Counted from the whole stretch's first letter, positions 11,488 to 42,381 are shown. The stretch: 57,105 nt of DNA, filler included, from Porpidia crustulata (GCA_964255105.1; 5 parts of 5 records of this genome joined end to end with filler, not necessarily neighbours in it), one strand, 5' to 3'. Translations and numbers: made by a program. The notes: generated by a model from the letters alone, not told the origin.

Positions 11488-11704
11488 GAAATAGATAAGT
11501 CACGATGCACGGAACGAGTGAAACCGGAAATCCACCACGTTTATCACCGAGATCAAGAAGCCAAGACAGCTCCACGTAGCCCCGGTATATTATCCGCTCT
11601 ATGCTTCACTACAGCACTTCTATCTGTATACATACAAAAGCCGCAACGACGTGGCTGCTGCGTCAAAAACCCTCGCAACAATTGCTCATCAAACCCGACA
11701 ATTC

Positions 11705-23664: not shown

Positions 23665-26600
23665 CTACCCCTTGGCATTATACTTATCATTAAACGCATT
23701 CACCGCCACCGCAATCTGCCGATACAGCCAATTCCGCGCGCTCTCCTCCTGCACCGGGATAAACGGCCCGTTCGTGCCCCCCTTGAGCGTCACGCCCATG
23801 CCCGTGCGCTCCTTGCTGATTGTCTGGATGTCGCTGAGCTTAATGTCCCACTCCGTCTTGAGCTTCTTGGTCCGTACCAGCATGATCCGGTTATACGTCA
23901 GCATGACCAACATGTCCTTGCCGGGTAGCTCGAGGTGCGCAATGTAGTCCTCGTTGAAGAATTTGCCGTCGTCCATGGTTTTGAGCCAAAACTGGCCGAG
24001 GGCTTCGCGTTGGGCGTATGGGCGGACGATGCCGTCGAGACCAATGAAGCGCGTGAGGCGGACACGGTCGAGGCCTTCGGCGTCGAAGACTGTGGTCGTG
24101 TTACGGACACCTTCGGCCATGTCTACAAGGTGTTAGCTTATATCATCCCGACTGAAGTGGTTACTACTTACTCGATGCAAGATCGAAAGCTCCAATCGCA
24201 GGCTTCGTTGCCAACCCAAGGAAGCCTTTCCCAACACCTTTCATAAAGCCAACAGCTCCCTCCTTCTCAGCACCTTCCATAGGATGCCTAGCTAGGCCAC
24301 CTATACCGCTAGCCATACTCGTCGCAAACGCATTACCACCGGCTGTGACACCATACAATGCATGCTTTGGCCTATTCCTCGACTTGGACATCCGGCGCTG
24401 ATCTTGGTATTCCTTGTCAAGCGTCGCAGCTGCTAGACCTTTTGACATACTGCCAGTAAACTTGGCCATGCTGTCCGAAAAGCCAAAGACGGATTTCTTG
24501 ACGAAGCTAGAGGCACCCTTTGCAATGCCTATACCAAGTTCTTGCGGCCTATCTGTCATGACAAGACCTTGATATGGCTCGTAGAAGATATCGGCAACCC
24601 CAGAACTGACGTTATTGAAAAGACCCACGGGGTTTCCGAGGAAATCAGCAGAGCCAAGTATGATATGTACTTGTCGGATACACTCCTGGGTGTAGTGATG
24701 TTGGATGTTTGCGATGAGTGCAGGGACTGACACTCGAGCGTTCTCTAACATCAAAGCGTTCAACTTCAGTGGTGCATCGTTAACGTTACCAATAGACATC
24801 GTCATAATGTTGACGAAGAACATTAGAGGGTTGGACGAGGTCATGGTGTCTTCTGCATTGATACGCTCCGTACGAACAAACGACAAGTCCAGTTGCATTG
24901 GTTGCAGATGCAATAGCTCGAAATAAACATCTTGCCCTTGTTGTTCTTTCTGCGGCTCAGGGATATCCAAGTCCTCATCGCATAGCTTTCCCTCATGCTC
25001 TTCAGACCACGACGCACCAGGCACTTTGGTAAAGTCAAGTAGTGCAAAGATAAAGTCCTCGTCAATCTCCAATGTCATTTGTTGAATCAAAAGCGTAGCG
25101 TATTTGATATACAAAACACCGTAAGAGTCGTCCTTGACACGTGTGACCATCGCATGGAAAATTGGGTGAGCTTCCATTTCCTTCCCTGTCTTTGGGACGA
25201 CGCTAGGGTAGAAGAGTATAGGGAAAATCCCACCATAGAGCTGGTTGTCGATCTGAATCCATTTGATAGTAGACTGGAGAGTCTGATATAATTTGGAGTC
25301 ACTGTACTTCAATTCGATCTCGCGGAATGTCAGATACAGAAGTTCCCTCAATTTCCTGTTCACCAGAGATATTCCAATACCAGCAAAGCGCACTTGGGCT
25401 TTGAATGTGACATCTGTTTCCATTTCTTTCACTTCAAATCCAGTAGCCACGCTGCCTTGCGATGCTTGGCCAGCCCTTTGTCTGTATAAAGACTTCGACG
25501 GTTTGTAAGGTGAGAGCACCATGGTTTGTGTAGGGCCATCGGCTGCAATATTGATGTCAATGATCTTTTGCTGCTTAGAACCTTGAGCTGCCGGTATCTT
25601 CATGGGGACGAGATTCCCGAGCTCTGCGAGCTTAATGTGCCTCTCTTTGCCGTTCGCAGTAATAACAAGTTCCTTATTCTTGGCGGCTGGATAATCCCAC
25701 GCGTATGGCATGATACTCCGGGGCGGTAAACGGTAGCGAATAGGTTTCCACCCAGAACTTCTGTCCTCTTCGCCCTCGGATATACTGGGATTCGTCTGGT
25801 AAAACATGAACTCCACATCGCTTTCATTCCGCATGGAAAATGGCCAGTGTTTGGTCTCGATACTTAGGTGTAGGAAGATTGTAGCATCTTCCATAATTAT
25901 CTCAACCCGTACAAGCTTCTGGCGTTGGTTCGCTTTTGCAAGCTTGACGTGGACTGTTCCAACATTACCTATATTGAAAGCCGATGACCACTGGTTATTG
26001 ACGCCGGGGAAACACAAGCATAGCTGCTTCTCCCGACTCTGCCTCGTGAAATGTAAAGGTAAGAGTTGGCCCTGTCCCAAGGAAACGACATTTGAAGACC
26101 CAGGTTCTCTTATATTGATCTCCTCATTGACCTTATTCTTAAGTACAAAACGAGGAGCTATTGTGACGACTTTAGTCAGCTTGTATTTACCTTCGCCTTC
26201 GGTGACAGAGACTCCAACATCGATCTCTGTTTTCTCCTTTTCTGAGGGTATAACAACATCAAAAGAACTGCCGATGGCGTCGAAACTCTGCGGCTTACTC
26301 CATGCTGAATCTCCTACTTTGATCATCGCGCGATTTTTCCGGTCGTCACTAGGGTATGAAAACATGTACGGCAGAGCCTTCTGGCTTCCATGATCGGTGT
26401 CCATGCGTCTGCCTTGGCCAGCCGCCGACTTTGCCGCTGAGAACATGGTCTTGCTTTGGATGTTGATATCCAGGCCAGTCTTGTTTAACACAAGATATGG
26501 ACTGTAAACTGCGACTTTGAAAGCTCCGCCACTATCCGGAATATTGCTACGTAGACGTTAGTAGTATTACCATGTCTGCCGGCTTACACTTACAAGTAGT

Positions 26601-29600
26601 GGAGCTTCAAGCTCAGGGCTGCGCCCTGCTTATCCTTGACCGATATTGTAGACTCGCGACGAAAATCCTCTCGAGTGTTAGTATTGATCACAGCAAACTC
26701 ACTCTGCTTGAAAACAGTATCTTGCATATCAATGCTCAATAGCAGCAGATGAGATAATTCTACAACATGTACAGGGCTAACTCCTCCCTTTCTCAGAAAA
26801 TTCGTCCAGTCTTTCTTCGTGTCTTTGTCGTATATACGATACTTGAAATCATAAGGCAATAAATTTTGCAACTCAATCGGCGCGGCGAGCCGTATTCGCA
26901 TGTAAGGGTATATGCTAGTCATTGGATCATTTTTGTCGTAAGAAGCATTCATCTGGAAATAGAATGGGGGAGATTGTTCGTTGCTCTCGCCCTTGCAAGT
27001 AATGGTGCGCGTCGATCGCTTGAGAAGATCTTTCCAGAAAAGCCTTTCGTTAGACCATGAGTATCCGAACCCTTGATCGGGTCGAATGACCAGGGAATGC
27101 ATGAATGCAGCACCGACTGGAGCTGGTCTGGCCTCACCAGGAGGAATTTTCTCTATCTTGAGCAGGTGACCTTCTTCTGGGCTGTATACACCAAGCTCTA
27201 CGGGTATCTGAGTGTTGTTCTCAATCACAAGAGGAGATCGGAAAGTGATGTACTTGACGTTGTCAGTACCGAGCTTTACCTCGGCCAGCAGCCGATGCAG
27301 GACCTTGTCCTGCCTTGGCTTGAGGTTGTACAGCGTTTCTCCCTCACGGTTTACCGGAATTTTGTCAATGGAATCGAAGCCGCTACCTTCAAGTTTGATA
27401 CCTACAACGCCTGTACTACCCTCTGGAGAGAGATTCTCACGCATTGTCGTTGGATCCTCGAAGCGCCAAGGATACTCTTCCCCATCAGTAAGCTTTGCAG
27501 CCGACCCTTGGTCTTCTTCTCTATTGGCAGCCCAAACATTCAGGTCAAATCCTGTGTAGTTTCGTATCCTATATGGCGCGTCTGCCGTTCTTGGCTTGGA
27601 TAGAACATCTTCATCGGTGGATAGGAAGTCCGCGGATTTGGATGCCAATGCTATGGTGGCTGACGTGACGGTTAACTCCATCACCTTGTGGGAATAGAGC
27701 TCAACAGATAGCATATCCGGATTCTGATTCTTCGCCACATGGAAGCCCATTTGCCACGGCTCTATCAAAGGCTCCCAAGCGGATTTCGAGAAATTGTAGA
27801 CATTAATGTACGTATCAAAGCTTGTGTCGCCTGTCATGGCGCTTGACCAATCGCGAACGTCTACGTTGAACTTCTTTACACTCCAATCGAGTAAAGGCAA
27901 TTCATGGAGATCTCCAATTAGAATCACTCTGATACCATCAATAGTAGCGGTCATCTCCTCCCTCTTCATGATAATGGAGCTTTGCGTCGCCACTTTCCCA
28001 CCATCATCAGGCTTCCTCCTGCCCGTAGTTCTGCCTGATTTTTTTGCAATGGTAGTGACAGGCCTTCCAGCGATGGATTTACGCTTGGTAGAGGCTGCGG
28101 CAGTGCCTCGGATCTCTTTGATCTTCTGTGGCTCAGTGTCTTCGACCTTTTCGCTGCTTTCACTATTCATCACGGACGCTTTATTGATGATCTGCAATGC
28201 TAAAAGAATATCTCGCAGTGAGAGTCGAAGGACAAGGGGCTCGATCTCTACCGATATACTTGTCAAGGATGACTTTTTACCCTGTGAGCGACTATCCATA
28301 GACATTTGGATTGTAAAATCGTCAAGGATTCTGAGACGGCTGGTGTCGAATTTATCCATACGACACAGGAACATGCCGATCTTCGTGACTTGTAGGGTTG
28401 AGGCGTTCTGTTGAGATAGCAGAACCTGCTTGGTGCCAAGGACTATAGCCTCAGAATTCGAAATTGCGGGATTGGCGATAAGGATAATCTGTGGATCGAC
28501 GATATTGATGCGGAAAGACATGCTCATTGAGGTTTCATTGGCCTCTTTAACGTCCACCTTGCCACGCGACCTTTCTTCTTGACTCTCGACAGGCGTGCTA
28601 ACGCCGCTGTCGGACTCTTCAGCCGGAAGTATGCCCTCCTGCACGCTATCCTCCACCTGGATTGGCTCTTCGGTCGAAAGCGCTGTGTTCGCAAACGTTT
28701 GCAAGGCAAATAGGTAATCAAAGGCAAGGATGATCCGAGGGCTGTCGATTGTAAGCATAGCTATAAGATGTCGCTCTTCACCACCAGATATTGATACGCT
28801 CGCCATGAATTGCTGTTTGACGTCGTCGTTGATCAAAGACATGACCTTTCGGAATTTGTTTGTTTCCTTCGTCCGACTATCTTTGATGGTGAAAGAGTTT
28901 ATAAGGAGCTCCGATTCGAGTGAGCTGTCGCTCTTCAAGCGAAGCTTGACCTTGGTATCATTAAAAGCAAAGGTGGACAGGCTAGCCGCCTCCATATCCC
29001 CAACAGGCTCATCTTCTTTGGCCAAGGTTAGTTCCAATCCAATCTTTCCTGCATTAAACACAAAATCAAGCGTTGCCCAACTATCAGGATTGGATGCTAA
29101 TTCAGGTCCTTGATGTGTAGGAGACTCAGAGGCCTTCACTTCTCCAGTAGCTTTCTCGCTGACCTTCTTTGCTGGTTCGGCAGTAGATTTAGGGAGTTCC
29201 TCCAAGATATCCTCTTCATCTTCTTCGGGTCCAGCAGCAAATGCATTTGGTACCGTTTTGGACAGTTCCAGGAGGAACCTTAACTGAGTTTGACTTATAC
29301 GCAGATTGACTGGTGACATGTTGCCTTCAATTTCCATGTCGGGCCGCATAGAGTTCTTCTGATGTTCCGCCTGGGTCACCTTGAAGTCAAGATCAACCTG
29401 GTCAATCATCTCTAGTTCTTCAGATCTGTCTTCATCATAGTGAAAGTCAGAAGTCAGGCGTACGTGTCGGATTCCAGCAGATAGCTTGTTCGCAGTGATC
29501 TTGCCCGCGGGCCCGTCGATTGGCACAAAGCTATTACTCGCGTAGATTTCGCCCAGATAAGCAGTCAGTAAGTCTCGAGACTTTCCTGCTTCCATCACAC

Positions 29601-32600
29601 GAGGGAACACTACGATGGGAGTCTGAATAAGAACGTCAAACTGCATATTACCGGCAGTTTCTTGCATTTGGCTGGCCTGGTTTGCTGCCGCCTGCCTCGC
29701 AGCATTGAAAATGGCCTGCATCTTACCAAATTTGACAGCAAACTGGATGATCTTCCGGAAAGGCTCTTCCAGGAAAGTGACTTTAATGGACCCGGACCTG
29801 AGAAATACCTTCGACGCGTAACCCGGATAGGAATCGGCCTTGGGATCGTAGGTTTGATAGCGGAAATCAGCAAGCTCATCGCCTTGAATTGCAATGAGCT
29901 GTCGAAGAGGTGACTCTGCTGAAGCCCCTTGATTGATGTCGTCCAGCAAAGATAAGCTGCCGAGTCGAGCTGTTATACGCATAGATGCTCCACTCAAGAA
30001 GATGCCAACGTCCGCTGTGTTCAAGCTTAAGGTCGCTAGCCGTATGCCATCGTTATTGAGAATCAATGCAATCTTCTGAAGGTCGACCTTGATTCTGATT
30101 TGGTCTGCGACATCAGACTGATCTGACTCGGTGTCTATCTTTTGAATTGCATCGTCTCCAGTCTTGGCGATCTGTTGGGTCTCCTTGTCGCCATCGGGAC
30201 TGGCGAAGGTGATCAAGACAAAATCAAGAAGCGTCAATAATGTCTTTCGGGTTACAACCAAATTTAAAGTTGAAATTGAGACATCGAGATTTGTGGTAAT
30301 GCTCTCATAGGTGGACACAAGTTCTGGCGAGTCTTTGTTAACCTTGACAAATTTGACATTGAAGAGGTCTTTTCCATCTTTTGTACCATACTCTTGACTC
30401 GATACGATTTGCTTGAATTCTGGGCTTGGATCTTCATCAATGTAATCCTCAACATATAAAGACTTCAGAAGAACCTCTGCGACCATATCATACGGACGAA
30501 GATAGAAATCCAGATGGAAATGCTCGGCTACGAGCTCCACCAGTAGCTGATCTGACTTGCCATCTTCAGGGTCTGATCGGTATAACGAGCCTTGCAACTT
30601 GTTCACTGTGAATTTGAATTCGAATTCCCTCTGATGCAGGTTCACACCTTCATCTTCTGCACGTTTTGTGTGAGTCTGGTTTCTATGCACTTCCTCGTCA
30701 CTCTCATCATCCATTACAAGGTCATGTTGGGCCTGAACCGATAAAGACTTAGATCTGGGTCTCCCCAGAGCTTCGTCCGCTCTGGACTTTGGAGCAACAC
30801 TACTCTTTCTTTGCTTCACAGGTGCTTTGGTCTTGCCATCTAATGGCTCATCACTGTCAAATTTGGGTATGGCTATATCGATCAGCCTCATCAGATTCTT
30901 ATACTTTTTGTCAGATATGGAAGCATGCAAGACTGGTAAGTGGCCAGAAATGCGAGTCTTGGTAAGATCCGTGGTCTTGGGAATAATCGAGGTTTCCAGG
31001 ACAAAATCCATGTTGATCCGATCGATAATGTGAAGGTTCATGGAATCGTCCTTCGCCTGTAGTTGATCCTTGGTAGCTTGAATGCCAGGGCCTATAAGGA
31101 CCTGCGTGGAGTCCAGCTTCAACAAAAACTTATCGTACATTAGACCCTCAAGTTGCTTGAAGTCCTCCTGGCTGTATTGCCTTTTCTGCTTTGATTGAAT
31201 GTCTCGCATGGTCTCTTTGTCAACAAGTTCACTGTTCAGGCTTACATGTCCAGCATCAAGTATCAAGCAGAGCGTACTCTTCTTTATTATACTTTCAGGG
31301 ATGATTATTAATGGGGCTTGTATATCGAGATGGGCGTTTACGGTCTTGTGCTCTTCAAGAGCGAACTCAAGACCGGCTCGCGTCTGCTGCCTGATACCCT
31401 CTACCGTTGCGCCTGCAGTCTCAAGTAATGCGCCGATTGACTCCATGTGTCTTTCCGGAGGCTTGAAGAACTTGGCCACTTCTACAACGAATTGTGGGTT
31501 GTAGATAACCTCGATACTCTTCAGCTTCATTGTGACAGCAGAGTCTGCACTTCCGTCGAGGGGGTTCTGTTCGAACACCAGATGGAAGAGAGAGTCCTCA
31601 GCTACTTTTCGTTGAACCTCCTCACTATCTTCGCCACTCTTGAGACTTTCCATAGACTTCGTGTCGGACATTGAAGACCTGTCTTTGACGTTCACAATTT
31701 GAGGAAATAGACTACCTTCAGTCGTACCGTCATAGACGCGCATTCCACCTAGACTCAGATCGGCCAAGAAGGAGTCAGGTCTCTGCAGTCCCTTCGCCTT
31801 GAAGTTGTCGAACATCAAGCTCAAAATTTCTGAGCCTTTGCCATGCGGATCACGCTTGAGAGTAAAGCTACCAGTACGAAGAGATGACTCAACATGGAGC
31901 TTCACGCTATCGCGAGGCAGGTCAACGCTTTCCGTGATTGCCTTTTTCTCGTCCCAATCGATTGCATCATAAAGCTCTTTCCTCTGTTCCTCGGTCATCT
32001 CCGTAGTCTCCTCGCCTACATTTGGTTCTTCCGCCTTCTTACCGGTGCCCCATGCCCACTGAACCCAACCTTGTTTCTGAGGTTGCTTTTTGACCCCGAC
32101 GTTTTCTTTGCGGAGCTGATTGTGCGCAAGGGACCGCCAGAAGCGGAGGTCTTCGTAACTGAGTTTCTTCTCGAGCTTGGTGATCTCGTCCATCTCAGCA
32201 GGCGTCAGCTTCTCTTCCTTCTTTTTCTTCTTGAATAAATAAATATATCGTAATCGATCGGCTCGCCTTTCTTTGATGTAATCCCAAGTCCAACGTCGAT
32301 TACGTTCTTGAATCTTTACGTGGACTGCCCGGAAAGCAAAACCAAGCCACGCTTTAGGATCTTCCTTTGGGGTCACAGTAGGCTGAAGCTTTTTGTACTC
32401 TTGATGCCGAATGAAGTAGTGAAAGAGGTCTACCATCATCAAAGCATCCCGATATTGCTCGTCGTCAAGTACAAAGCCAAGTTCGTTGAAGATTAATCGT
32501 GCCTTAATCTTCGGCTTTTCAACCTTGCCAGACTTGTCCAATTCCACGGCAGCGCGACCACTGACCGGTTTCAACATATATTGCTGCTTCTCGTTAGTAT

Positions 32601-33354
32601 CCAGAGCTTGGCGAAATTTCGAAATCATGTCGCCATGGTCTGTGCCTTGTGCTTCTGCACCAACCTGGGCGCCTCTACCTGTTCCGAAAAGCTCTGTGTC
32701 TGTATTCCAGTAAAAAGCCAATTCATTAAGAACGGTCAATTTATTCGTGGTCCCTTGGGAAGATTGGATAAAGCTTGGTCTCCAGTCAGAGTCAGTGCTC
32801 ACTGCACTGAACTCCTTCAAAGTCAAACCAAGAGCAAAAGGGTGTCCAGGGGCTGAGATGGAGTCCTCGTAGCGAATGTGAATGCCTTTGATGCTAACTT
32901 GGAGGTTGTCGATAATGGCGTTGGTCATACTCTCCGTGAAACTTTGGCTTTTCTGCTGTTCTTCGCTGCTCTGACCATTGACGTTCCTTTGCTTGAGCAA
33001 TTCAGCATTTTCCAGCTTCTCCATCTTAACCGCGTGCTCTCTCTGGACCTCTTCCTCTTCATTATAGTCTGAATCTTCTTTCGGAGCTGCAAGGAGAAAA
33101 ATATCTTCAATTGTGATCCTGACTGGCTTCCCGCGCAGATTCGTCCACGGTATTGACATTGTAAGCTGCCCGAGGTGGCCTTCAACAACATTGACAGGTA
33201 AATGAAGTTGGTCGAGAGCTTCTCTCCGAAGCTCGAGGTTGCGTAGCTTGACATCGCCATTCCATATACCCACGTTCAACTGATTGGCATCGAAGTTTTT
33301 CACGTACATGCCCAAGAACCTGTTGAGCAGGCCCGCGACTAGACCTTCGAGCAT
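23665..33354 (-). CDS. VPS13: Vacuolar protein sorting 13 bridge-like lipid transfer protein (~3197 aa)
   Basis: Exons 33354-26594, 26546-24172 and 24122-23665. Chorein_N start MLEGLVAGLLNRFLGMYV, WEPLIEPW, VAB repeats, IQIDNQL, LGSADFLGNPVGLF (ATG_C) and a C-terminal PH-like domain. Confidence 0.97.
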
Positions 33355-34262
33355 GGCAGCTGGCGAGTGCCGTGACCCGGGCAGGGGTTGCGAGCGCGAA
33401 CGAGTATTCGGTGTAGTAGGACGATAGATTCCCAAAATCTACCGTGTTTTCTCCAGGATCATAGTGACTGCGGTGAGGCAGGTGATGCTGGTAGTATACA
33501 ATGCTCTTGCCAGTTTTAACCTTGGGCGCACAGTCTAGGTAGGATTTGATGGGCGCGACCGGGCAGCTAGCTATTATTGAGTGCTTTGTAGGGTCAAAAC
33601 GGCGAGCCCAGTTTCCACATGAGTTTGGGAGAATTTTATTTCAGTGGAAGGATCATCAAAACCTGAGATTGTGGCAATATCGTAGGTGGGGCAGCCAGCA
33701 TTACACGTAGGGTCTGTACTAGAGAAATCTCTATTGATAGTGGTTGTAGATTGTATACAGGCGACTTAGCTGTCTAAAACGCGTAGTTTCTTCGTACAGT
33801 CGCAGATATCATAATACTCATGAGGTTGCTGGATATATTCTGACGTGACAGGCAGTAACTTGGAATCAGCCACAGTTTGTGGCTTGCTAGGTAGGTAGTC
33901 ACCAATGACGTCCGAGGGCAGCTTACGTAATGCGCCCTGTCCCGCTCGTGAGCTTTCAAGGTTATAATGTAATTAGGCCCGATTTTCAATGGCGCTGGTA
34001 CAATGGTGTAGTGGTTATTCTTTTCTCCGCCGTAAAAGTGAGCACGAATCTTTCACAGCCTATCAAACACCCTCTCAGGATTGTCCGGGATTTCCGAGCT
34101 GTCCACTACGGATTAGACCATCACGCGGGTGACAAAAAAAACTGATAGTTCGGAGGATTCTATCCGCCCCCGAGATCCTCATCAAATTTGTTAGCAAATC
34201 TTAAATAAGGGAAAGTATAACGGTACACCCCCTTTGTTTACACGTACACCCCCCTCCCACTA

Positions 34263-35598: not shown

Positions 35599-38500
35599 TC
35601 AGGTAAGTTCCATGATGCGATCTTGCGGTGGCTGCGAGTAGAGCTCGGATCTGAGGGATGTAAATGGTAAATCGGGTCTTGCGGGAGCCAATGCGGTGGG
35701 TTGGGTCAGAATCGGCACAACTTCCGCCTTGGTTTTCTTCTCTTCCGTTGCAGCGGCGGGCATATTGGTTGGTGGGGACTTTAGCCGGACAAGACGTAGC
35801 ATATTGAGCGCATTTCGCAACGCAGAAGGTCGCTGGCCCTCTGAAACAATGCTGGCTTTCTTGAACAGAGTCTTCCGCTGTCCTAGATTCTCCGCTTGTT
35901 GCTTCTCTGGATCTTGCATACGACCACCGCCTTGCGGGAGCTCTAGTTTGGGTTCGTTGAAGTTATTTGAGGCTATCTGTATGTCTTCGGTCAAGGGTTT
36001 CGTTTTCGCGCCCTTCTTGGCGCTGTTCTGGCTCGAGTCTTTCTTAATTACGACAGGGTCAGCAACGTCTGCGACCTGGTCTCCCAAACTCTTCCTGGCC
36101 TTTGATGTTCGATCAAGTATGGACTCTCCTTGCCTTTGGTCAACAGCTAGAGCCAATTCAATCGCTTGAAATTTGTCAGTCAAGTAGGAATCTGAGCCTT
36201 CGAAAAGGTCCTTGAGAACTGGAATACTGTTGAGACGCATCTGTATTATGATTTGCCGGGCTGGTATGTATTGTTCAACGCTGATCAGTCTGTTGACACA
36301 GACGAATAGCTCCTGAACGGTCCACTCAATAATGTCTGGATCCAGTGCAAAGGTGCCAGGATCGCTGATTTCCCGCGAAAGTAAAAGAGCTGTGTGTAGA
36401 ATGTCTCCTGGGAGAGGAAGTTGTAGCTGTATATTGAGTAAACGTGATTCGATTGTTAGACGCGTTGTTCGGATATAATCATCACGCATACCTATGATGC
36501 TATAGAGGTGCCCGCGCAAGAGAAGCTCTGCTTCATTGAAGGATCCTTTCGCTACATAACAGTCCGCCAATAGGCAGGCAGTAGTCAGCGCATACTCGCC
36601 ATAGTCACCCATCACTATTGGCGGATCTAAAGCATTCACGGGCCGGCAATCTTGCCGAAACATCGCGATCAAATGACCTTGCGCTTCCGACCATCGCCCG
36701 GATCTCATGATTACGGTCAGTAATTCATGGTTATACCTCCAATAGGCACGCCGAAGCTTCGACCTGTTGGGTATGGTTTGGGTCCTGGAATGTCCAAGCC
36801 CCGATCGGAGGAATTGCTCGGCCTGATCTAGGACACCGGCACGCGAAAGGTAATATCCGCACGAGAGATGACCTTCTTCTGGTATCAGCTTCAGCTGATT
36901 CCAGCACTTGAGTTTTACCAGAACGCAGCTGAGCGCTGAATGCTCAGGCAAGACCGCCCACTCCAAGGCCTGTTGACACCATGCCTCAGAAGTTTCAACG
37001 CTGGCACGGAGTAACTCTGAGCTCTGCGAGATTTCCGCTATATCTATCAGCTCGACCAAGACATAGCCGGCGGCGTCCCTAGCATCCGCCGTTGTCGAGC
37101 GATTTTTCAACAGATTCTGCATGTCTGCCAGAATAACACTTGACATCGATTTTTCCGTGCTCCTTAAACATCTGTATTTTTGTGAATGAGCGAAGCCTTT
37201 CAACTTGGCGAGTCGAAGAAGAACCCATTCGTAGGAGTAGACCGCAGACTCTGACGAAAGATCAAAAGCCGTATAGAGCAAAGCCATGTCATTATCCTGA
37301 TGTCGATGTGTCAAGGTTTTTAATAGAAGGCTGAGATGCAGTTGCTCAAATAAATTCCAGTCAGGCGTCCTTACGCGGTCTAATGATCCTATACGCGTCA
37401 AGAACACATGCCCATGATTGTAGTACACTTCTCGGTAGCGCTCGGCTAAGGGGTGGGAGGTCTTATCAGGCATGCCGTCAAACACGTCAAATAAGCTTTG
37501 AAGCGTAGAGTATCTGCGGTCATCATCAATGTCCTCAGCCACATCTTGAGATTTCCATATCCGGCAGTCGACCGTCCACGAGCCCTGCTTCTGACCTTGG
37601 TCTTTCACATTCCTATCAGGAACAATTCGAATTATACCAGACGCCATAAGATCCTGCTCCAACCTATGTAAGTTCTCCGGCTCTGCTACTGCTTGCAGAA
37701 ATGCAGAGATTGAGGACGGTGTGACATCGTCACGAAACGGGGACTCCGTGATTCGAGAACAGGGTGGATAACCGAAGCAAGGCTCTTTGGCTCGAGACAA
37801 AGCGTAGCGCGCGTGGATGAGCTCCACCAACTCGCGCAGGGGCACACCTTTGGCGCCAAAGAGACACAGGAGGCAGAAAATAATGCTGTTCTTGAAGTCC
37901 CTAATGAAGCCAACAGTGCCCGGCTGTTCTACTGTAAGTCCACCTGAAGTGGTTGTTCCCTCGAAGTCAGTTTCAGCCTTAGTGTGTGGCTCCGTCGGAG
38001 TGATTTCACCTGGTGTCGATGGGCTGATTTGACCCGGATGGGGCCAGGAACAATGCCTACGTATACAAAGGAAACTCAACAAGCCGGCCAAAAGAGAGAC
38101 TGATAAAACGCTACCAACCGCAATGCCGGCTATTTGACCGGTGTTGAGACGATGAGATGGATTACTACTGAGTGTAGGGGTTGCCAAAGTTGTAGGGGCA
38201 GAAGTACTAATCTGGCTACTAGACGGGAAAGATGAATATAAACTAATCAGAGGTGTCCGCTCAAGGTGCTCGGTAAGGGGTACATTTCCGCATACGTAAT
38301 CGGTGTACACCTGGATAGCTCCCAGGTACTCCAATACTCGACAACTCGGGAAAGCTTCTGGGCTTCAAAATAGTCAGCAATAGAAGATGTATAGCAGGAG
38401 CACAGATTACCAAGATCTTATCAGACCGTTTGAAGGTCCAACAGACGTCGATTGATAGTTACTACAGGCGGTGTGGAAAACACACTGGACATAAGTAAAG

Positions 38501-38869
38501 CTAGATGGCCCGGCTGATGCTGTATTGCAGCAGCCTATCGCGCTCAAAGCTCGATCTGTTATGCATGTGAAAGACGGATTGAGGCAGGTAAGTGCGTTCG
38601 CTATCAGACATCAGCGTGAGACCACAGCGAGTCATTAGTACCAACCGGAGGTCCTCACCTATTTCACCATTGATATAGCCACAAGTGTTATGCCCAACAG
38701 CTTGTCGCTTCTGCAGAAGTGCAGTCGCCGGTGTAGGCATGGGATGCCATCCCAGCCCATTTGCCGGATTATCGAGGAAAACTGTTTGGCGTGCGACCTG
38801 CCCGGGAGCAGCTATCGCCCGCGCCAGAAATAAGTTACCTAGCCATAGCTTCAATGCAAACGACATCAT
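35599..38869 (-). CDS. Type I membrane protein (~1054 aa): signal peptide, Cys-rich ectodomain, Ser/Thr stalk, TM helix, cytoplasmic NLR-like winged-helix + TPR-like region
   Basis: Exons 38869-38659, 38600-38411 and 38362-35599 splice in frame. Signal peptide MMSFALKLWLGNLFLARAIA, KR site, 10 Cys (TCGY...LTC...FTC...GCC...QC...AC...SC...SC...VC), S/T stalk, TM IAGIAVGSVLSVSLLAGLLSFLCI-RR (~38133-38062). TPR-like units CGYYLSRAGVLDQAEQFLRSGL and LADCYVAKGSFNEAELLLRGHL. Confidence 0.8.
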
Positions 38870-39304
38870 GTTGTGTCGATATGTCGAAGCTTCACTAGAG
38901 CGGTCACTGGATTTCGAGACGTCAGGTTGAACATGTGCGTTTTCGTTTGTTCAGCAACTCGTCTGTTATGCATCGTTCCATAATTCCGTCCTTTGTTAGT
39001 ATCCTGAGAAGAGGGACTGGGGAAAGTTCCAATACTCATCCTCTATCTTGCTCTTCGATTTGTGATTCAAAACACACAGTCAAATTGTTAACTCTTGTGA
39101 TCTCAATCAATTACATCTGGCGCCGGGCAAGCTAAGAAGCTAAACAATCATTTCATCCATACGTACTCAGTCTGGTTTTCAATAAGTAGGCAGCCCGAGC
39201 GCTCTTCAGCTTACCCAGTCCCGTCGAAGTGTCCACTCATTGGAAACCAGCCTGGGTAGATGACTAGAGTAGCATTCATTCATTTACGGAACGCGTACAC
39301 TACA

Positions 39305-39401
39305 CACTGGGACTCACCCCTCAATGGGCCACCTTGGTCTGGGGTTAGGGTTTGATTAGTGTTGAAATACTAATTGGCCCGTTGAGGGGTGAGTACGAGT
39401 A
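39305..39401. mobile_element. MITE-like inverted-repeat element A containing GGGTTAGGG
   Basis: ACTCACCCCTCAATGGGCCA (39312-39331) and TGGCCCGTTGAGGGGTGAGT (39375-39394) form a 20-bp inverted repeat with 1 mismatch; right end ...GAGTA. Confidence 0.65.
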
Positions 39402-39406
39402 CACAC

Positions 39407-39536
39407 TACTCGTTCTCACCCAACGGTCCGCCCCACCTAGGGTTAGGGTGATATCATAGGGTTAGGGTTAAATAGACTAATTTTCACTAGCGCGGACCGC
39501 TGGGGGGTGCGGACCGTTGGGGGGTGTGAATGAGTA
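39407..39536. mobile_element. MITE-like element B with TA ends, pogo/Fot1-style TIR and internal TTAGGG units
   Basis: Left end TA-CTCGTTCTCACCCAACGGTCCGC; right end GCGGACCGCTGGGGGGT-GCGGACCGTTGGGGGGTGTGAATGAG-TA (TIR with two internal direct repeats). TAGGGTTAGGG occurs twice inside. Confidence 0.7.
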
Positions 39537-39884
39537 GTATGCAAGTAGCAGATTCTAATCTCTTTCTGGTGCTCGTGTCAGCCATGTCGCTCTGTTCAGA
39601 ACCGCCCAGTGACGCCCAACTCTGCAGTTTTAAGCGAGCCATGTCGATCTAAATGGCCGATGATTATCCCAAAAAAGGATGTTAGCTTGGACGTAGGGAC
39701 GCCTTGGTGGGGTACAGGGGGCCGGCTTTTTCAGCTGCTCCTCCAGATTCTTACGTTCTACATCGTTGCTTTGCTTTGGTTCTGGAGTCGCGGTGCTTTG
39801 AATGGGTGACCCAACTCAAGAAAATCCTTGTTTGGCGTTATTGTAGATCAACATATCCCTGTGTAACTATCCAAGCCAGCTTCA

Positions 39885-42381
39885 ATGGTGGTAAGTCTCG
39901 TCAGTTGGCTCAATTAGCGGCCATGAGCATTGGGAAGCTGATCGCAGCTTGCGTCGTGTAGGGACGCACCGAGATAATTGCTAGCCCAGAGACATCCGAG
40001 GCGACACTTGAGTCAGCTGCCTCGAACCCCCAATTAAGCGATACTATTGTATTGACAGTATCATCTCAGCATTGTCTTCGTCCATGGTCTGAACCCCACG
40101 GGGGACCAGGACCACGCGCGTAAAACATGGACACACAAAGACGGCACTTTCTGGCCAAAAGACCTCCTCCCCGAGCTCTTACCTTCTGCAAGAATTCTTC
40201 TGTTCGAGTACAATTCTAGTGTGCTACATAATGCCTCAACTGCATCAGTCGCGGCTCACGCGCAGTCATTGCTTAATGATGTCAAGAATAAGCGTCTGCA
40301 AGAGAACGAGAAGCATCGTCCTCTAATATTCGTTGCGCACTCTTTGGGCGGCGTACTGGTCAAGCAGGCGCTGATCGAAGCGACGATAAACCGGACATAC
40401 GAGTGTTTGCATGCCTCGACCTATGGCCTCGTCTTCTTTGCGACACCTCACCTGGGTGGCAATAGGGCTGGAGCCGCAGATGTTGCAGCTAAGATAGGCA
40501 GTATGATATCCGGCGAGCCGGTGAACTCACTGCTCGCGACCTTGGAAAAGGGCTCTCTCGTGAATGAGATCTCATCGGATCAGTTCAGTCATCAAGTCAA
40601 CAAATATGTAATTCTTACTTTTTTCGAGACGAAGCCGATGAGCCTGAAAGTCAAGGGGCGCCGATTCCTTCCACAGATCACCAGCATGGTAAGATCCTCA
40701 ACGGGTCATAGATTATTGCTGACTAGGAACAGGAGATTGTGAGCAGGGAATCTGCAAAGCTGAGAGTCGAAAGGGAGACTCCCTTGGAGCTTGACCGCAA
40801 CCACTCGGACATATGCAAATTCGCTCGGTCTGGTGACAATGCATACGTGAGAGTAGGAGATAACCTCAGGGTTCTGGCAGGCGAAGCTCAGAATTATCAA
40901 GTTGAATGTAGTCATGCTCCACCGAGAATTTGTACGTGGTATTCACGTCTCTTCATCGTCAAGACTTCCCACTACCAGAATGGCTAATCTCTAAGGCCAT
41001 AGCAGAATTCGGTAATTTCCGATCGAATTATTTCTCAAACAACATTCCTGGAGCGATACCTACACATCTGGGTATTCGCGAGCGAGAGCATCGCATTAAC
41101 CTTCCGAAGCAATGCGATCCCTTTATTGGCCGGAACTCGTTAGTGGGTCACATAGATGAAGCTTGGAGGACTTGGGACGGCCCAAGACAGCGTCGACTGT
41201 GCTTGTCAGGTCTTGGTGGTGTAGGTAAGACAGAGCTGAGTCGGTTCATTGTGGATAGGCTTGGGCCAAGACGTCACATCCTGTGGTTGCGGGCTACTGA
41301 CTACATGACGCTGCAACGGGATATGTACGATGCTGCCATCGATTTGAGAAATGAACTTGTGCGGTTTGATTCACCGAACGCTAGCACTAGCAAATTAGAG
41401 GAACACCAAGCCTTTTACTTCTCCGCTCCAAATTCCGAGTTTCTCATGAAGAGTCTAGAAATATGGTTAAAGACGCCTCGAGATGAGGACTCTCGGATCC
41501 TGCTAGTATTGGACGACCTTGACGGGCTCGAAGCTGAAGAACGCCAGAAATTTTCTCACAGCCTCACTGGAGACTCCATCGATCTTATCTTCACTACCCG
41601 AGACCCTCTCATAGCTGAACTTGGTATGTCTTGGGACGCCGCCCAAATACACGTTCCCCCGTTGCAGGTCGATGATGCCATTGACTTGCTTCTGTTCCAC
41701 ATGAAGCGGAACCGCGCCGCAAAGACCCCAATCTTTAAGCATCCGTTAGACAGACAACGTGGGGAAGAGTTGGTGACATGCTTAGGGCCTTTGCCTTTCG
41801 CCATTATCAACAGTTCCCATTACCTTAAAGATCAACTAGCAGCAAATACGGATGATCTCGGCCTCGATCAGTTCCTTGTCCAATGGAGTCTCGATGAAAG
41901 TCGGAGCGCAGTACTTAGCAGCCGCCGGACAGATATCAACTACCAATACACCATGAAGGAGTCTTTCGCGGTTTCCATCTCGCGGCTCCGGAGAAATACC
42001 AGGAATAGTGATACCGCGGAACTATATAATCTATGTCTCTGTATGATACGTCTGCTCAGTGTGATGGGTATCTCGGAAATTCATCGAACACACATCCACA
42101 GATTTTTCTCCAAGCATTTACGTGCACGGGCACATCCACCGACACTTTTCATAGACAAACCTATGGAGAAACCTGATATCTACCTCTGGAGACTTGCAAA
42201 TGATTCCAGTTTAATCAACTCGTGTCTGGTGGAACTGAAACGGGTTTCTCTATTATCAGAACCTGGCGAGGATAGTATCGTGGTTCTTAACGCGCTGGTA
42301 AGGGATTTGGTATTACTTCTCCCAGCGAACATCAGCTTTGAAGAAAAGGCCGCCTTGCAAAGGGTGGTAGACATGCTGTAG
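39885..42381 (+). CDS. Fungal NLR-like protein (~750 aa): SesB-like alpha/beta-hydrolase + NB-ARC, no C-terminal repeat domain
   Basis: Exons 39885-39890, 39962-40011, 40070-40688, 40733-40931 and 41003-42381 (the first two are less certain). Hydrolase motifs DIVFVHGL, FWPKDLLP, RPLIFVAHSLGGVLVKQAL, FFATPHLG, NHSDICKF. NB-ARC motifs FIGR, Walker A GLGGVGKT, Walker B LLVLDDLD, IFTTRD, LGPLPFAI. WHD end LKRVSLL...LNALVRD, then stop. Confidence 0.88.

Follow-up and report, generated by a model that had tools for sequence, protein, structure and literature searches.

In fungi, NLR genes have been described side by side with a partner gene that acts in the same pathway, i.e., in the NWD2/HET-S, FNT1/HELLF, sigma and PP motif systems (PMC9815663 and PMC10197012), and the Pfam models applied to NLR N-termini include DUF676 (PMC9815663). 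Sensor/helper NLR pairs in plants (e.g., RGA4/RGA5 and RRS1/RPS4) are arranged head-to-head, and the account that summarises them reports, for the Sordariales, 13 head-to-head pairs among 225 two-NLR clusters, all of which it gives as NLR-NLR pairs (PMC12258605).

The window analyzed here, i.e., a stretch of 57,105 nucleotides of Porpidia crustulata DNA (GCA_964255105.1, filler included), contains on one contig two divergent genes (35599-42381), flanked by a VPS13 gene and an AMP-binding enzyme gene (Table 1). As both genes have many homologues, we regard them as real genes rather than chance ORFs. The original prediction for this DNA was partly confirmed: the domains and the layout hold (a head-to-head pair about 1.0 kb apart on the same contig was proposed, and the starts are 1015 bp apart), while the description of both genes as uninterrupted was wrong, since the minus-strand gene has two introns and the plus-strand gene at least two. 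A k-mer test of the intergenic region, in which shared k-mers were sought, gave nothing clear.

Table 1. Features of the divergent gene pair, with positions counted from the first base of the window
Feature	Position	Strand	Details
Membrane-protein gene	35599..38869	-	exons 38869-38659, 38600-38411, 38362-35599 (stop included); product 1054 aa
Hydrophobic N-terminus, ~aa 1-21	38807..38869	-	putative signal peptide, read off translation
Cys-rich ectodomain, 10 Cys, aa 63-158	38290..38683	-	Cys positions in translation; both introns inside span
Ser/Thr-rich extracellular stalk, ~aa 170-210	38134..38256	-	Ser+Thr fraction 0.29 over 70 aa preceding the TM segment
Single transmembrane (TM) helix, aa 211-234, then RRH	38062..38133	-	top Kyte-Doolittle window, 2.26
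Cytoplasmic winged-helix-like module	37540..37917	-	AF2 model of 136 aa, pLDDT 79.7, five helices plus beta hairpin
TPR-like alpha-solenoid, ~460 aa	36139..37524	-	AF2 pLDDT 73, pTM 0.68
Low-complexity C-terminal tail with conserved PPT motif	35602..36138	-	L..P-P-T..P block nearly invariant (family alignment)
Intergenic region, common to both starts	38870..39884	.	1015 bp, between minus-strand ATG (38869) and modelled first coding base of plus-strand gene (39885)
Repeat-less NLR gene	39885..42381	+	exons 39885-39890 (uncertain), 40059-40688, 40733-40931, 41003-42381; product 737 aa
SesB-type/DUF676 alpha/beta-hydrolase domain (predicted)	40059..40931	+	Pfam DUF676 E 1.4e-6, 28.4 bits vs cut-off 20.3
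NB-ARC core	41209..41805	+	Walker A (41209-41232) through GPLP (41785-41805)
Winged-helix domain of NB-ARC module	42031..42309	+	block kept in 10/10 family members

The splice model of the minus-strand gene, which starts with an ATG at 38869, includes two GT..AG introns (38658-38601, 58 nt; 38410-38363, 48 nt) across which the frame stays open, and its third exon is covered by the homologues P0002 (73%) and P0003 (65%). The hydrophobic N-terminus of the product is probably a signal peptide, and its TM segment was aligned with the TM segments of other family members. Pfam searches found no match for the ectodomain, no WSC domain and no NOD in the protein, and the P-loop pattern G....GK[ST] is absent from all 1054 aa. 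Overall, these results bear out the predicted succession of signal peptide (still putative), Cys-rich ectodomain, TM helix and a cytoplasmic region with winged-helix-like and TPR-like parts (the latter by structure only) and without a P-loop.

In AlphaFold2 (AF2) models, the cytoplasmic part folds into a winged-helix module and, beyond it, an alpha-solenoid, the C-terminal tail (35602..36138) being outside the solenoid model. In VIA, the winged-helix module matched generic winged helices with Z of 5-6.1 (best Z 6.1, rmsd 2.5, 71 aligned), i.e., those of LOTUS, MarR, O-methyltransferase N-terminal, ESCRT-II and cullin domains, with no NLR among 50 rows; Foldseek gave no match at E<=1e-3, and chains of the NRG1A and ADR1 complexes matched solely at E of 1.5-2.2. 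For the solenoid, Foldseek found six matches at E<=1e-3 (4.7e-4 to 7.8e-4), including the TPR domains of APC, OGT and LGN. VIA Z scores for the solenoid were in the range below ~13 that can be generic for helical repeats, with 12.5 for LGN (rmsd 6.5, 305 aligned), ~11 for Rap/PlcR/NprR and other TPR proteins, and 10.7, level with many other TPR proteins, for the TPR domain of a Podospora protein (4y6w). No Pfam TPR model reached its cut-off in the protein (best TPR_12, E 0.042, 14.5 bits vs 30.1); TPR_19 was found in 9 of 32 family members (best E 0.001) and TPR_MalT in 5 of 32 (best E 0.0028), in all cases below the cut-off. We thus class the solenoid as TPR-like by its predicted structure only; NLRs use folds of this kind as sensors.

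A profile-profile comparison (hhalign) between the families of the two genes gave a probability of 0.04%, and comparison of the minus-strand family with Pfam and PDB returned no NLR family, with no Pfam family at threshold and no PDB relative. The domain-by-domain check suggested with the original prediction yielded the expected TPR-like solenoid and winged-helix fold, and the proposed NLR origin of the cytoplasmic region is unsupported, as its folds match generic examples only and the profile comparison gave nothing.

In splice models that keep the frame open, the plus-strand gene has at least two introns (40689-40732, 40932-41002), and a third one near the 5' end is probable (39891-40058). 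An in-frame TGA occupies the position at which a related locus (L001, see below) has its ATG, and the model, which has no obvious start codon, needs an uncertain first exon of 6 nt. Homologues include P0017 (80%), P0018 (78%) and P0019 (42%; 762 aa, DUF676 plus NB-ARC). From its Pfam match and motifs, i.e., GxSxG (AHSLGG, 40335-40352) and a His motif (DRNHSDICKF, 40793-40822), the N-terminal domain is predicted to be a SesB-type/DUF676 serine hydrolase; it is 55-56% identical to the corresponding domain in L001-L006. The region that follows matches Pfam NB-ARC (E 6.9e-6, 25.9 bits, cut-off 23.5; 31.4 bits for the L001 orthologue) as well as AAA_16 and NPHP3_N, and comparison with PDB profiles gave weak matches to Roq1 and MLA13. 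With GLGGVGKT (Walker A), LLVLDDLDG (Walker B), IFTTRD (TTR, sensor 1) and GPLPFAI (GLPL-type) all kept in the family alignment, Pfam score and motif set together assign the predicted protein to the NB-ARC STAND NTPases.

The plus-strand protein ends 23 aa past the VVLNALVRDL winged-helix motif, in agreement with the predicted SesB hydrolase and NB-ARC protein that stops about 20 aa after the winged helix. All 10 aligned family members likewise end soon after the winged-helix block and have no repeats. No repeat-like ORF was found in the 740 bp between this gene and the next one (AMP-binding enzyme), and in L001, where the ORF stops at 11593, the two ORFs beyond it have no Pfam match. A canonical tripartite fungal NLR was thus rejected, as C-terminal TPR, ANK or WD40 repeats are absent from the protein, the family and the downstream ORFs.

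Six loci with the plus-strand family were found (L001-L006), which are mutually 85-99% identical and were counted as one lineage; compared to the window, identity is 28% for the membrane protein and 35-37% for NB-ARC. A gene of the minus-strand family lies upstream, on the opposite strand, in L001, L003, L005 and L006, i.e., the head-to-head layout, with a spacing of about 1 kb, is present in 4/4 loci that hold enough upstream DNA (L004 has only 828 bp, and L002 shows exon 2 of the minus-strand gene at the contig edge), and the gene starts in L001 are ~1.0 kb apart, as in the window. As the Cys-rich exon 2 is kept in L001-L006 with 39-49% identity, and as the TM segment and the cytoplasmic domain (28%) are present, the minus-strand gene of this lineage is, judging by sequence, a true orthologue of that in the window. 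None of 10 proteins flanking the pair in the window matched the six loci, and the flanks in L001 are HVSL and DUF3659 genes; linkage of the homologues, named in the original prediction as a test, was thus observed with different neighbors.

Moreover, in each of three further assemblies, the contigs bearing homologues of the two genes are equal in size (12232, P0002/P0017; 40916, P0003/P0018; 40668, P0041/P0022), which places both on one contig by size alone. P0041/P0022 represents a third deep lineage (P0022 is 53% identical to P0021, and P0041 ~40% to the minus-strand gene of L001). In a partial comparison against ~45 known contig sizes of the minus-strand family, P0020, the Logan contig of P0021 and P0023 each lacked a partner. 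Both genes are intact in L001. The NB-ARC ORF in L004, L005 and L006 matches just the first 147 of 458 residues, and the ORFs of the minus-strand gene are broken in L005 and L006, with indels that shift the frame. Both genes are thus broken together in one sub-lineage, a single event in metagenome assemblies that possibly contain errors. Given this joint decay, the equal-sized contigs and a layout kept in a distant lineage with changed flanks, the two genes look like a conserved pair rather than accidental neighbors, and the pairing in distant relatives suggests that the two proteins work together.

The minus-strand family comprises 76 clusters at E<=1e-10, including named members from Cladonia borealis, Bacidia gigantensis and Xanthocarpia lactea, and the plus-strand family has 10 members, with no NCBI-sourced member returned by the search. 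As 41 of the 42 minus-strand family members scanned have no NOD, and as named members are known for this family and no NCBI-sourced member for the other, most of these membrane proteins probably work without this NLR. In the remaining member, P0070, one product of 2123 codons contains the family domain as a fusion with NACHT and ankyrin repeats, the domain lying N-terminal to the NOD and outside the sensor position; one other observation on domain content is an SH3 domain in one family member.

Taking the domain make-up, the repeat-less architecture, the head-to-head linkage and the joint decay as observed, we favor, at a probability of roughly 45%, the reading that the two genes make up an NLR module which the membrane protein serves in trans, as a sensor or a bait. 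The pair would represent a conserved, divergently transcribed module of lichen-type (Lecanoromycetes) fungi, with one product being a NOD-effector protein (i.e., an NB-ARC switch with a SesB/DUF676 serine hydrolase fused to it, without sensor repeats of its own) and the other a type I membrane protein with the Cys-rich ectodomain outside and the winged-helix plus TPR-like solenoid inside the cell. What C-terminal repeats contribute in single-chain NLRs, i.e., a surface for ligand sensing, as bait or for auto-inhibition, would most likely come in trans from the membrane protein. Once this protein changes state, the NB-ARC protein would be released or recruited and would oligomerise, thereby turning on the hydrolase at the membrane; the physical contact of the two proteins, the direction of signalling and the output are what we infer here. 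The module need not have originated by splitting of one NLR gene.

One possible explanation for the linkage is that the two proteins are neighbors without direct functional contact, i.e., a lineage-specific cell-surface scaffold or sensor and an independent repeat-less NLR, kept together because they share a bidirectional promoter or because local rearrangement is slow. The much larger size of the minus-strand family, mostly without an NLR link, fits this explanation, as does a linkage observed in only three deep lineages (two via contig size alone) between proteins for which no homology, common motif or other sequence link was found. Conservation of pair, orientation and spacing at 28%/36% protein identity, with 0/10 flank genes kept, is hard to reconcile with it, however, as are the joint decay in one sub-lineage and the fusion of one such domain to a NACHT NLR (P0070), and we consider it rather unlikely. 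Linkage and joint decay are compatible with any obligate partnership, including one in which the membrane protein acts downstream, as a docking platform or substrate-presenting anchor through which the SesB hydrolase, once activated, would reach the plasma membrane, the NB-ARC protein being triggered otherwise. In such an arrangement the NB-ARC protein would lack any sensor, and an input role accounts more readily for the conserved Cys-rich ectodomain; this reading therefore appears improbable, even though the domain occupies an N-terminal (effector or adaptor) position in P0070 and the SH3 domain suggests a scaffold role.

Under gene fission, the cytoplasmic region would descend from the half of an ancestral SesB/NB-ARC/TPR receptor that reaches from winged helix to TPR, now membrane-anchored. 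This would account for the observation that exactly the repeat part is missing from the plus-strand family and that the other protein has a winged helix plus TPR-like region. The SesB-like/NB-ARC/TPR architecture is known from fungi (Dyrka 2014, PMC4986451), and both the sub-threshold TPR_MalT matches and the match to 4y6w, the latter level with many TPR proteins, would be consistent with fission. However, the plus-strand protein retains its own winged helix, so that the second one would be a duplicate and the parts do not strictly complement each other; the hhalign comparison of both families came up empty, the P0070 domain lies outside the sensor position, and no full-length relative bridging both genes was found in searches limited by word index and length. 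Fission thus seems quite improbable, and nothing backs the original proposal that the two genes are complementary halves of a single ancestral NLR.

The module that we favor resembles the fungal amyloid-signalling pairs in that an NLR gene adjoins a partner gene. In those pairs, the NLR has repeats and no effector, the effector comes from the neighbor and both share a short amyloid motif, whereas in the window the NLR has the effector and no repeats and the neighbor encodes a membrane protein that carries a TPR-like domain; a pair of this type was rejected, as BLASTP between the two proteins showed no shared motif (best E 3.9). Plant sensor/helper pairs, as described in the source cited above, are likewise divergent with a short common intergenic region, and they divide sensing from execution, as proposed for the window. 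Both plant partners are full NLRs, whereas the proposed sensor in the window is NOD-less and membrane-spanning, and plant-type paired NLRs were rejected given the lack of a P-loop pattern or NOD match in this protein. Single-chain SesB-like/NB-ARC/TPR NLRs of fungi (e.g., Podospora Pa_2_10340) have the same effector type (alpha/beta hydrolase) and NOD type, and they carry the TPR region that the window protein and its 10/10 aligned family members lack.

In the Wsc/Mid2 cell-wall stress sensors of yeast, a signal peptide and a Ser/Thr-rich stalk are combined with one TM helix and a tail that signals in the cytoplasm, and the membrane protein in the window shares this organization (its signal peptide being putative); it differs by the lack of a detected WSC domain and by a folded cytoplasmic domain of ~600 aa instead of a short tail. 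Plant ZAR1, unlike the proposed module, keeps its LRR and uses soluble kinases, encoded away from ZAR1, as adaptors. Common to both would be recognition specificity supplied in trans by a non-NLR protein, i.e., RLCK pseudokinases for ZAR1 and the membrane protein for the module.

The gene pair in the window comprises a repeat-less NLR gene (+ strand, 737 aa) and a membrane-protein gene (- strand), which we interpret, with a probability of about 45%, as a two-gene NLR module with the membrane protein acting in trans for the repeat-less NOD-effector. In such a module, the membrane protein would supply a sensing, bait or inhibitory surface in trans, and activation would render the serine hydrolase active close to the membrane. 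The window is fungal in character (short GT..AG introns and housekeeping neighbours), with genes for an importin, a PAP1-type bZIP factor, RPN1, RIO1 and VPS13 on one side of the pair and, on the opposite side, genes for an AMP-binding enzyme and a DEAD helicase. VPS13, an ordinary housekeeping neighbour located 2 kb beyond the 3' end of the membrane-protein gene, is missing from the related loci.

The closest homologues of the membrane protein (P0002 and P0003; 73% and 65% identical) and of the NLR protein (P0017 and P0018; 80% and 78% identical) come from contigs that match exactly in size (12232 and 40916), and the distant membrane-protein relative P0041 and the NLR relative P0022 (35% identical to the window) are both on a contig sized 40668. 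By our own estimate, chance would not be expected to produce three exact size coincidences among about 9 x 45 comparisons. When metagenome contigs were scanned with the NLR gene family, six loci (L001-L006) were obtained, which were counted as one lineage given their mutual identity of 85-99%. Compared to the window, this lineage is 35-37% identical in the NB-ARC domain, 55-56% in the hydrolase, 28% in the cytoplasmic region of the membrane protein and 39-49% in its Cys-rich exon. An opposite-strand membrane-protein gene was found upstream of the NLR gene in L001, L003, L005 and L006; in L002, exon 2 of this gene is at the very edge of the locus, and in L004 the upstream DNA is too short for a linkage test. 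The two gene starts are about 1.0 kb apart in L001, as in the window. None of the 10 flanking proteins of the window was found in L001-L006, and the neighbours in L001 are HVSL and DUF3659 genes. As the pairing recurs in a lineage that shares none of these flanks, the two-gene block has been kept while its surroundings changed. Four kb downstream of the NLR gene in L001, a 1595-codon ORF contains at least 14 DUF3659 repeats (E 5e-302).

In a FastTree phylogeny of 38 membrane-protein family rows, the window clade stands alone on a long branch, and P0041 is placed in a well-supported 11-row clade with P0047 and P0028, which are the best tblastn matches of the membrane-protein gene of the metagenome lineage (itself absent from the tree). 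Since P0041 groups with these two proteins, apart from the window clade, the linkage spans deep splits of the family. The two intergenic regions share 13 nine-mers as compared to 3.5 expected under a simple shuffle, with nothing convincing among them.

Within the metagenome lineage, both genes are intact in L001 and the NLR gene is intact in L002 and L003, with one 1-nt insertion in the membrane-protein gene of L003. In L004, L005 and L006, only residues 1-147 of 458 are matched by the NB-ARC ORF, with approx. 1.9 kb of the L001 sequence absent, and the hydrolase ORF of L006 is interrupted as well. The membrane-protein gene carries frame-shifting indels in L005 (+5 and -13) and L006 (+5 and +7) and is broken into 3-4 ORFs in both; the protein pieces are 65-87% identical to L001 (77.5% over the longest L005 stretch), compared to 93-95% in the hydrolase domain and about 98% in one flanking gene. 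As the truncation of the NLR gene is common to L005 and L006, these two loci represent one decay event. Joint decay is what an obligate partnership predicts, and assembly errors are possible.

In Pfam searches, the NLR protein scored above the curated cut-offs for DUF676 (E 1.4e-6) and for NB-ARC (E 6.9e-6), and it carries all five motifs (GxSxG, Walker A, Walker B, TTR and GPLP). The protein ends 23 aa past the winged-helix motif, and the 740 bp between this gene and the next contain no repeat-like ORF. All 10 aligned family members end 17 to about 125 aa past the winged-helix block, and P0019 (762 aa) has the complete DUF676 and NB-ARC architecture without repeats; lack of the sensor is thus a stable trait of the family and not a recent truncation. 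Only 5 members, all of them already known, came from a word-index search based on the family profile. The hydrolase exon has no in-frame ATG ahead of the catalytic serine; an intact gene model requires a 6-nt first exon and a 168-nt intron, and a 71-nt intron starting at the same donor, although more canonical, would lead to a stop. Upstream of the IVFVHGL codons, the DNA of the window and of L001 is too poorly alignable to fix the start, and the window gene may either use the 6-nt upstream exon or be damaged. An in-frame TGA directly precedes QY in the window, and QY follows an ATG (MQY...) in the L001 orthologue; as compared to L001, the window gene has about 10 codons fewer after the TGA.

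Coordinates of features in the window and in metagenome locus L001
Feature	Sequence	Position	Strand	Detail
NLR gene, coding blocks	window	40059-40688, 40733-40931, 41003-42381	+	
NLR gene, first exon required by intact model	window	39885-39890		ATGGTG
In-frame TGA before QY	window	40053-40058		
MQY... start compared with the TGA region	L001	8872-8880		
Membrane-protein gene	window	ATG 38869 to stop 35599	-	exons 38869-38659, 38600-38411, 38362-35599; 1054 aa
10-Cys ectodomain	window	38290-38683		
10-Cys ectodomain	L001	7441-7975		
Most conserved family block, FCLLCLFGAKGVPLRELVELI	window	37870-37900		
Tail with proline-rich block	window	35602-36138		
VPS13 gene	window	24164-33640	-	two long ORFs, 2282 and 797 codons
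DUF3659-repeat ORF	L001	15873-20657	-	

The membrane protein has a hydrophobic N-terminus, 10 cysteines within aa 63-158, a stalk rich in Ser/Thr and a single strongly hydrophobic segment (aa 211-234) followed by RRH; its approx. 820 cytoplasmic residues contain no P-loop pattern. The 10-Cys ectodomain (pattern TCGY/F-I-x-G ... GCC ...) matches no Pfam family and is kept in distant orthologues; in more distant family members (e.g., the Cladonia group), the ectodomain is short and Ser/Thr-rich only. A nearly invariant proline-rich block (P-P-T..P) is found in the disordered tail of most family members, including that of the window, and P0030 carries a C-terminal SH3 domain (residues 846-897, E 1.5e-14), which together hint at SH3-type scaffolding. 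Residues 1-320 of P0069, a Bacidia gigantensis gene model, contain several hydrophobic helices ahead of the family domain with a weak MFS_1 match (E 0.019), which would be a membrane anchor of another kind or else the product of a fused gene model.

AlphaFold2 modelling of the cytoplasmic region with 15 family sequences (pLDDT 73, pTM 0.68) predicted a solenoid of approx. 20 helices, preceded by a helical module that includes a beta hairpin, and the first module alone (36 sequences, 136 aa) was predicted as a winged helix (pLDDT 79.7). The best solved-structure matches of this module (LOTUS, MarR, PadR, O-methyltransferase N-termini, ESCRT-II and cullin; Z 5-6.1) indicate a generic winged helix in the model, and Foldseek returned no match for it at E<=1e-3. 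For the solenoid, Foldseek identified APC subunits, OGT and LGN (E about 5e-4), and VIA identified LGN (Z 12.5) and Rap, PlcR, NprR and KLC (Z about 11), with a Podospora TPR domain at Z 10.7, level with many others. Pfam TPR models were below threshold in all 32 family members scanned, and for homologue P0014 the ESM Atlas listed clusters of the TPR_12 type (0.79-0.83), which serve as leads only. The original prediction of a winged-helix-like and TPR-like region without a P-loop was therefore borne out as a statement about fold, with TPR applying to the fold only. The other domains and the layout of the pair were confirmed as well, except that the genes are not uninterrupted, as both contain introns.

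We found no evidence that the cytoplasmic region is derived from an NLR. A profile-profile comparison of the membrane-protein family (32 sequences) with the NLR family (10 sequences) gave a probability of 0.04%; the only hhalign pairing, between FCLLCLFGAKGVPLRELVELI, the most conserved motif of the membrane-protein family, and the P-loop block LSLSGLGGVGKTELS (E 0.89), is probably due to chance. A PDB profile search with the family alignment returned nothing at E<=10, a second family alignment returned only designer PPR proteins, via summed short repeats, and BLASTP of the two window proteins against each other found no shared signalling motif. An exhaustive family profile search of 1.84 billion cluster representatives identified 121 proteins (76 at E<=1e-10), and a metagenome scan gave 35 pattern matches and zero relatives. 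Among 42 family members scanned with Pfam, 40 had no family, one had the C-terminal SH3 domain and one (P0070, 2123 aa) combined a complete domain of this type (about residues 1-700) with a P-loop NACHT (NPHP3_N) and ankyrin repeats. The N-terminus of P0070 falls inside the conserved domain, as in ORF-fragment records of the window (P0001), and P0070 probably represents a single uninterrupted ORF as predicted by a prokaryote-style gene caller. This protein is a second connection between the domain family and NLRs and, as the domain is N-terminal there, a bait or adaptor role fits better than a canonical C-terminal sensor. A complex prediction for cytoplasmic residues 18-616 of the modelled piece and NB-ARC region 60-458, run without alignments or controls, scored 0.00, which speaks neither for nor against an interaction.

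That the two genes are unrelated neighbours is a minority possibility, though one of real weight. The membrane-protein family far exceeds the NLR family in size and has named members in Cladonia borealis, Bacidia gigantensis and Xanthocarpia lactea, and homologue searches returned no NCBI-sourced NLR homologue; these observations count against obligate coupling of any kind. On the other side stand the recurrent linkage and the joint decay. A further reading is a dedicated transmembrane receptor hard-wired to the NLR, passing an ectodomain cue through a detachable sensor to the hydrolase, which we consider rather unlikely as a whole. Here a cue from the cell wall or the extracellular space, possibly of photobiont or microbial origin, would be read by the Cys-rich ectodomain, the winged-helix/TPR-like domain would be the detachable sensor of the repeat-less SesB-NB-ARC executor, and surface perception would be coupled directly to NOD-driven hydrolase activation.

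A membrane protein that acts downstream, as anchor or scaffold, would also be compatible with the pairing and seems quite improbable. Literal fission of one NLR is more improbable still: it would account for a repeat-less protein beside one with a TPR-like solenoid, but since the NLR protein has its own winged-helix domain, the two products do not simply complement each other as halves. The original prediction had read them as such halves of one receptor; conservation of the pair, its main test, was upheld by the head-to-head arrangement with different flanks in the metagenome lineage, and profile and PDB searches gave no support to the proposed split-NLR origin.

To our knowledge, fungal NLRs are numerous and a trigger is known for almost none of them. 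The two-gene module proposed here, a repeat-less NOD-effector plus a membrane protein with an exposed ectodomain, is a testable candidate for feeding an NLR from outside the cell and offers a function for a lineage-restricted protein family without annotation. As it is found in lichen-forming fungi, the pair is also a candidate system for recognising partners or microbes in symbiosis.

In the full texts covered by our literature searches, we found no membrane-protein partner of a fungal NLR and no link to surface sensing. The word "transmembrane" is missing from the main texts of PMC4986451, PMC12258605 and PMC9815663, whose supplementary tables could list repeat-less or unusual architectures, and in the portions consulted of a fungal-immunity review (PMC10197012) it is used for effector helices only; as far as these sources go, a transmembrane receptor with a repeat-less NLR is not a layout described for fungal NLRs. 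The components have known counterparts in the sections of these papers considered here: sesB-like/NB-ARC/TPR NLRs were described by Dyrka 2014 (PMC4986451), where Pfam annotated only 52% of the regions located C-terminal to the NOD, and DUF676 is among the NLR N-terminal profiles of Wojciechowski 2022 (PMC9815663). Paired arrangements are represented by 13 head-to-head pairs among 225 two-NLR clusters in a Sordariales survey, which termed them rare (PMC12258605), and by NLR/effector neighbours joined by amyloid motifs (Wojciechowski 2022, PMC9815663).
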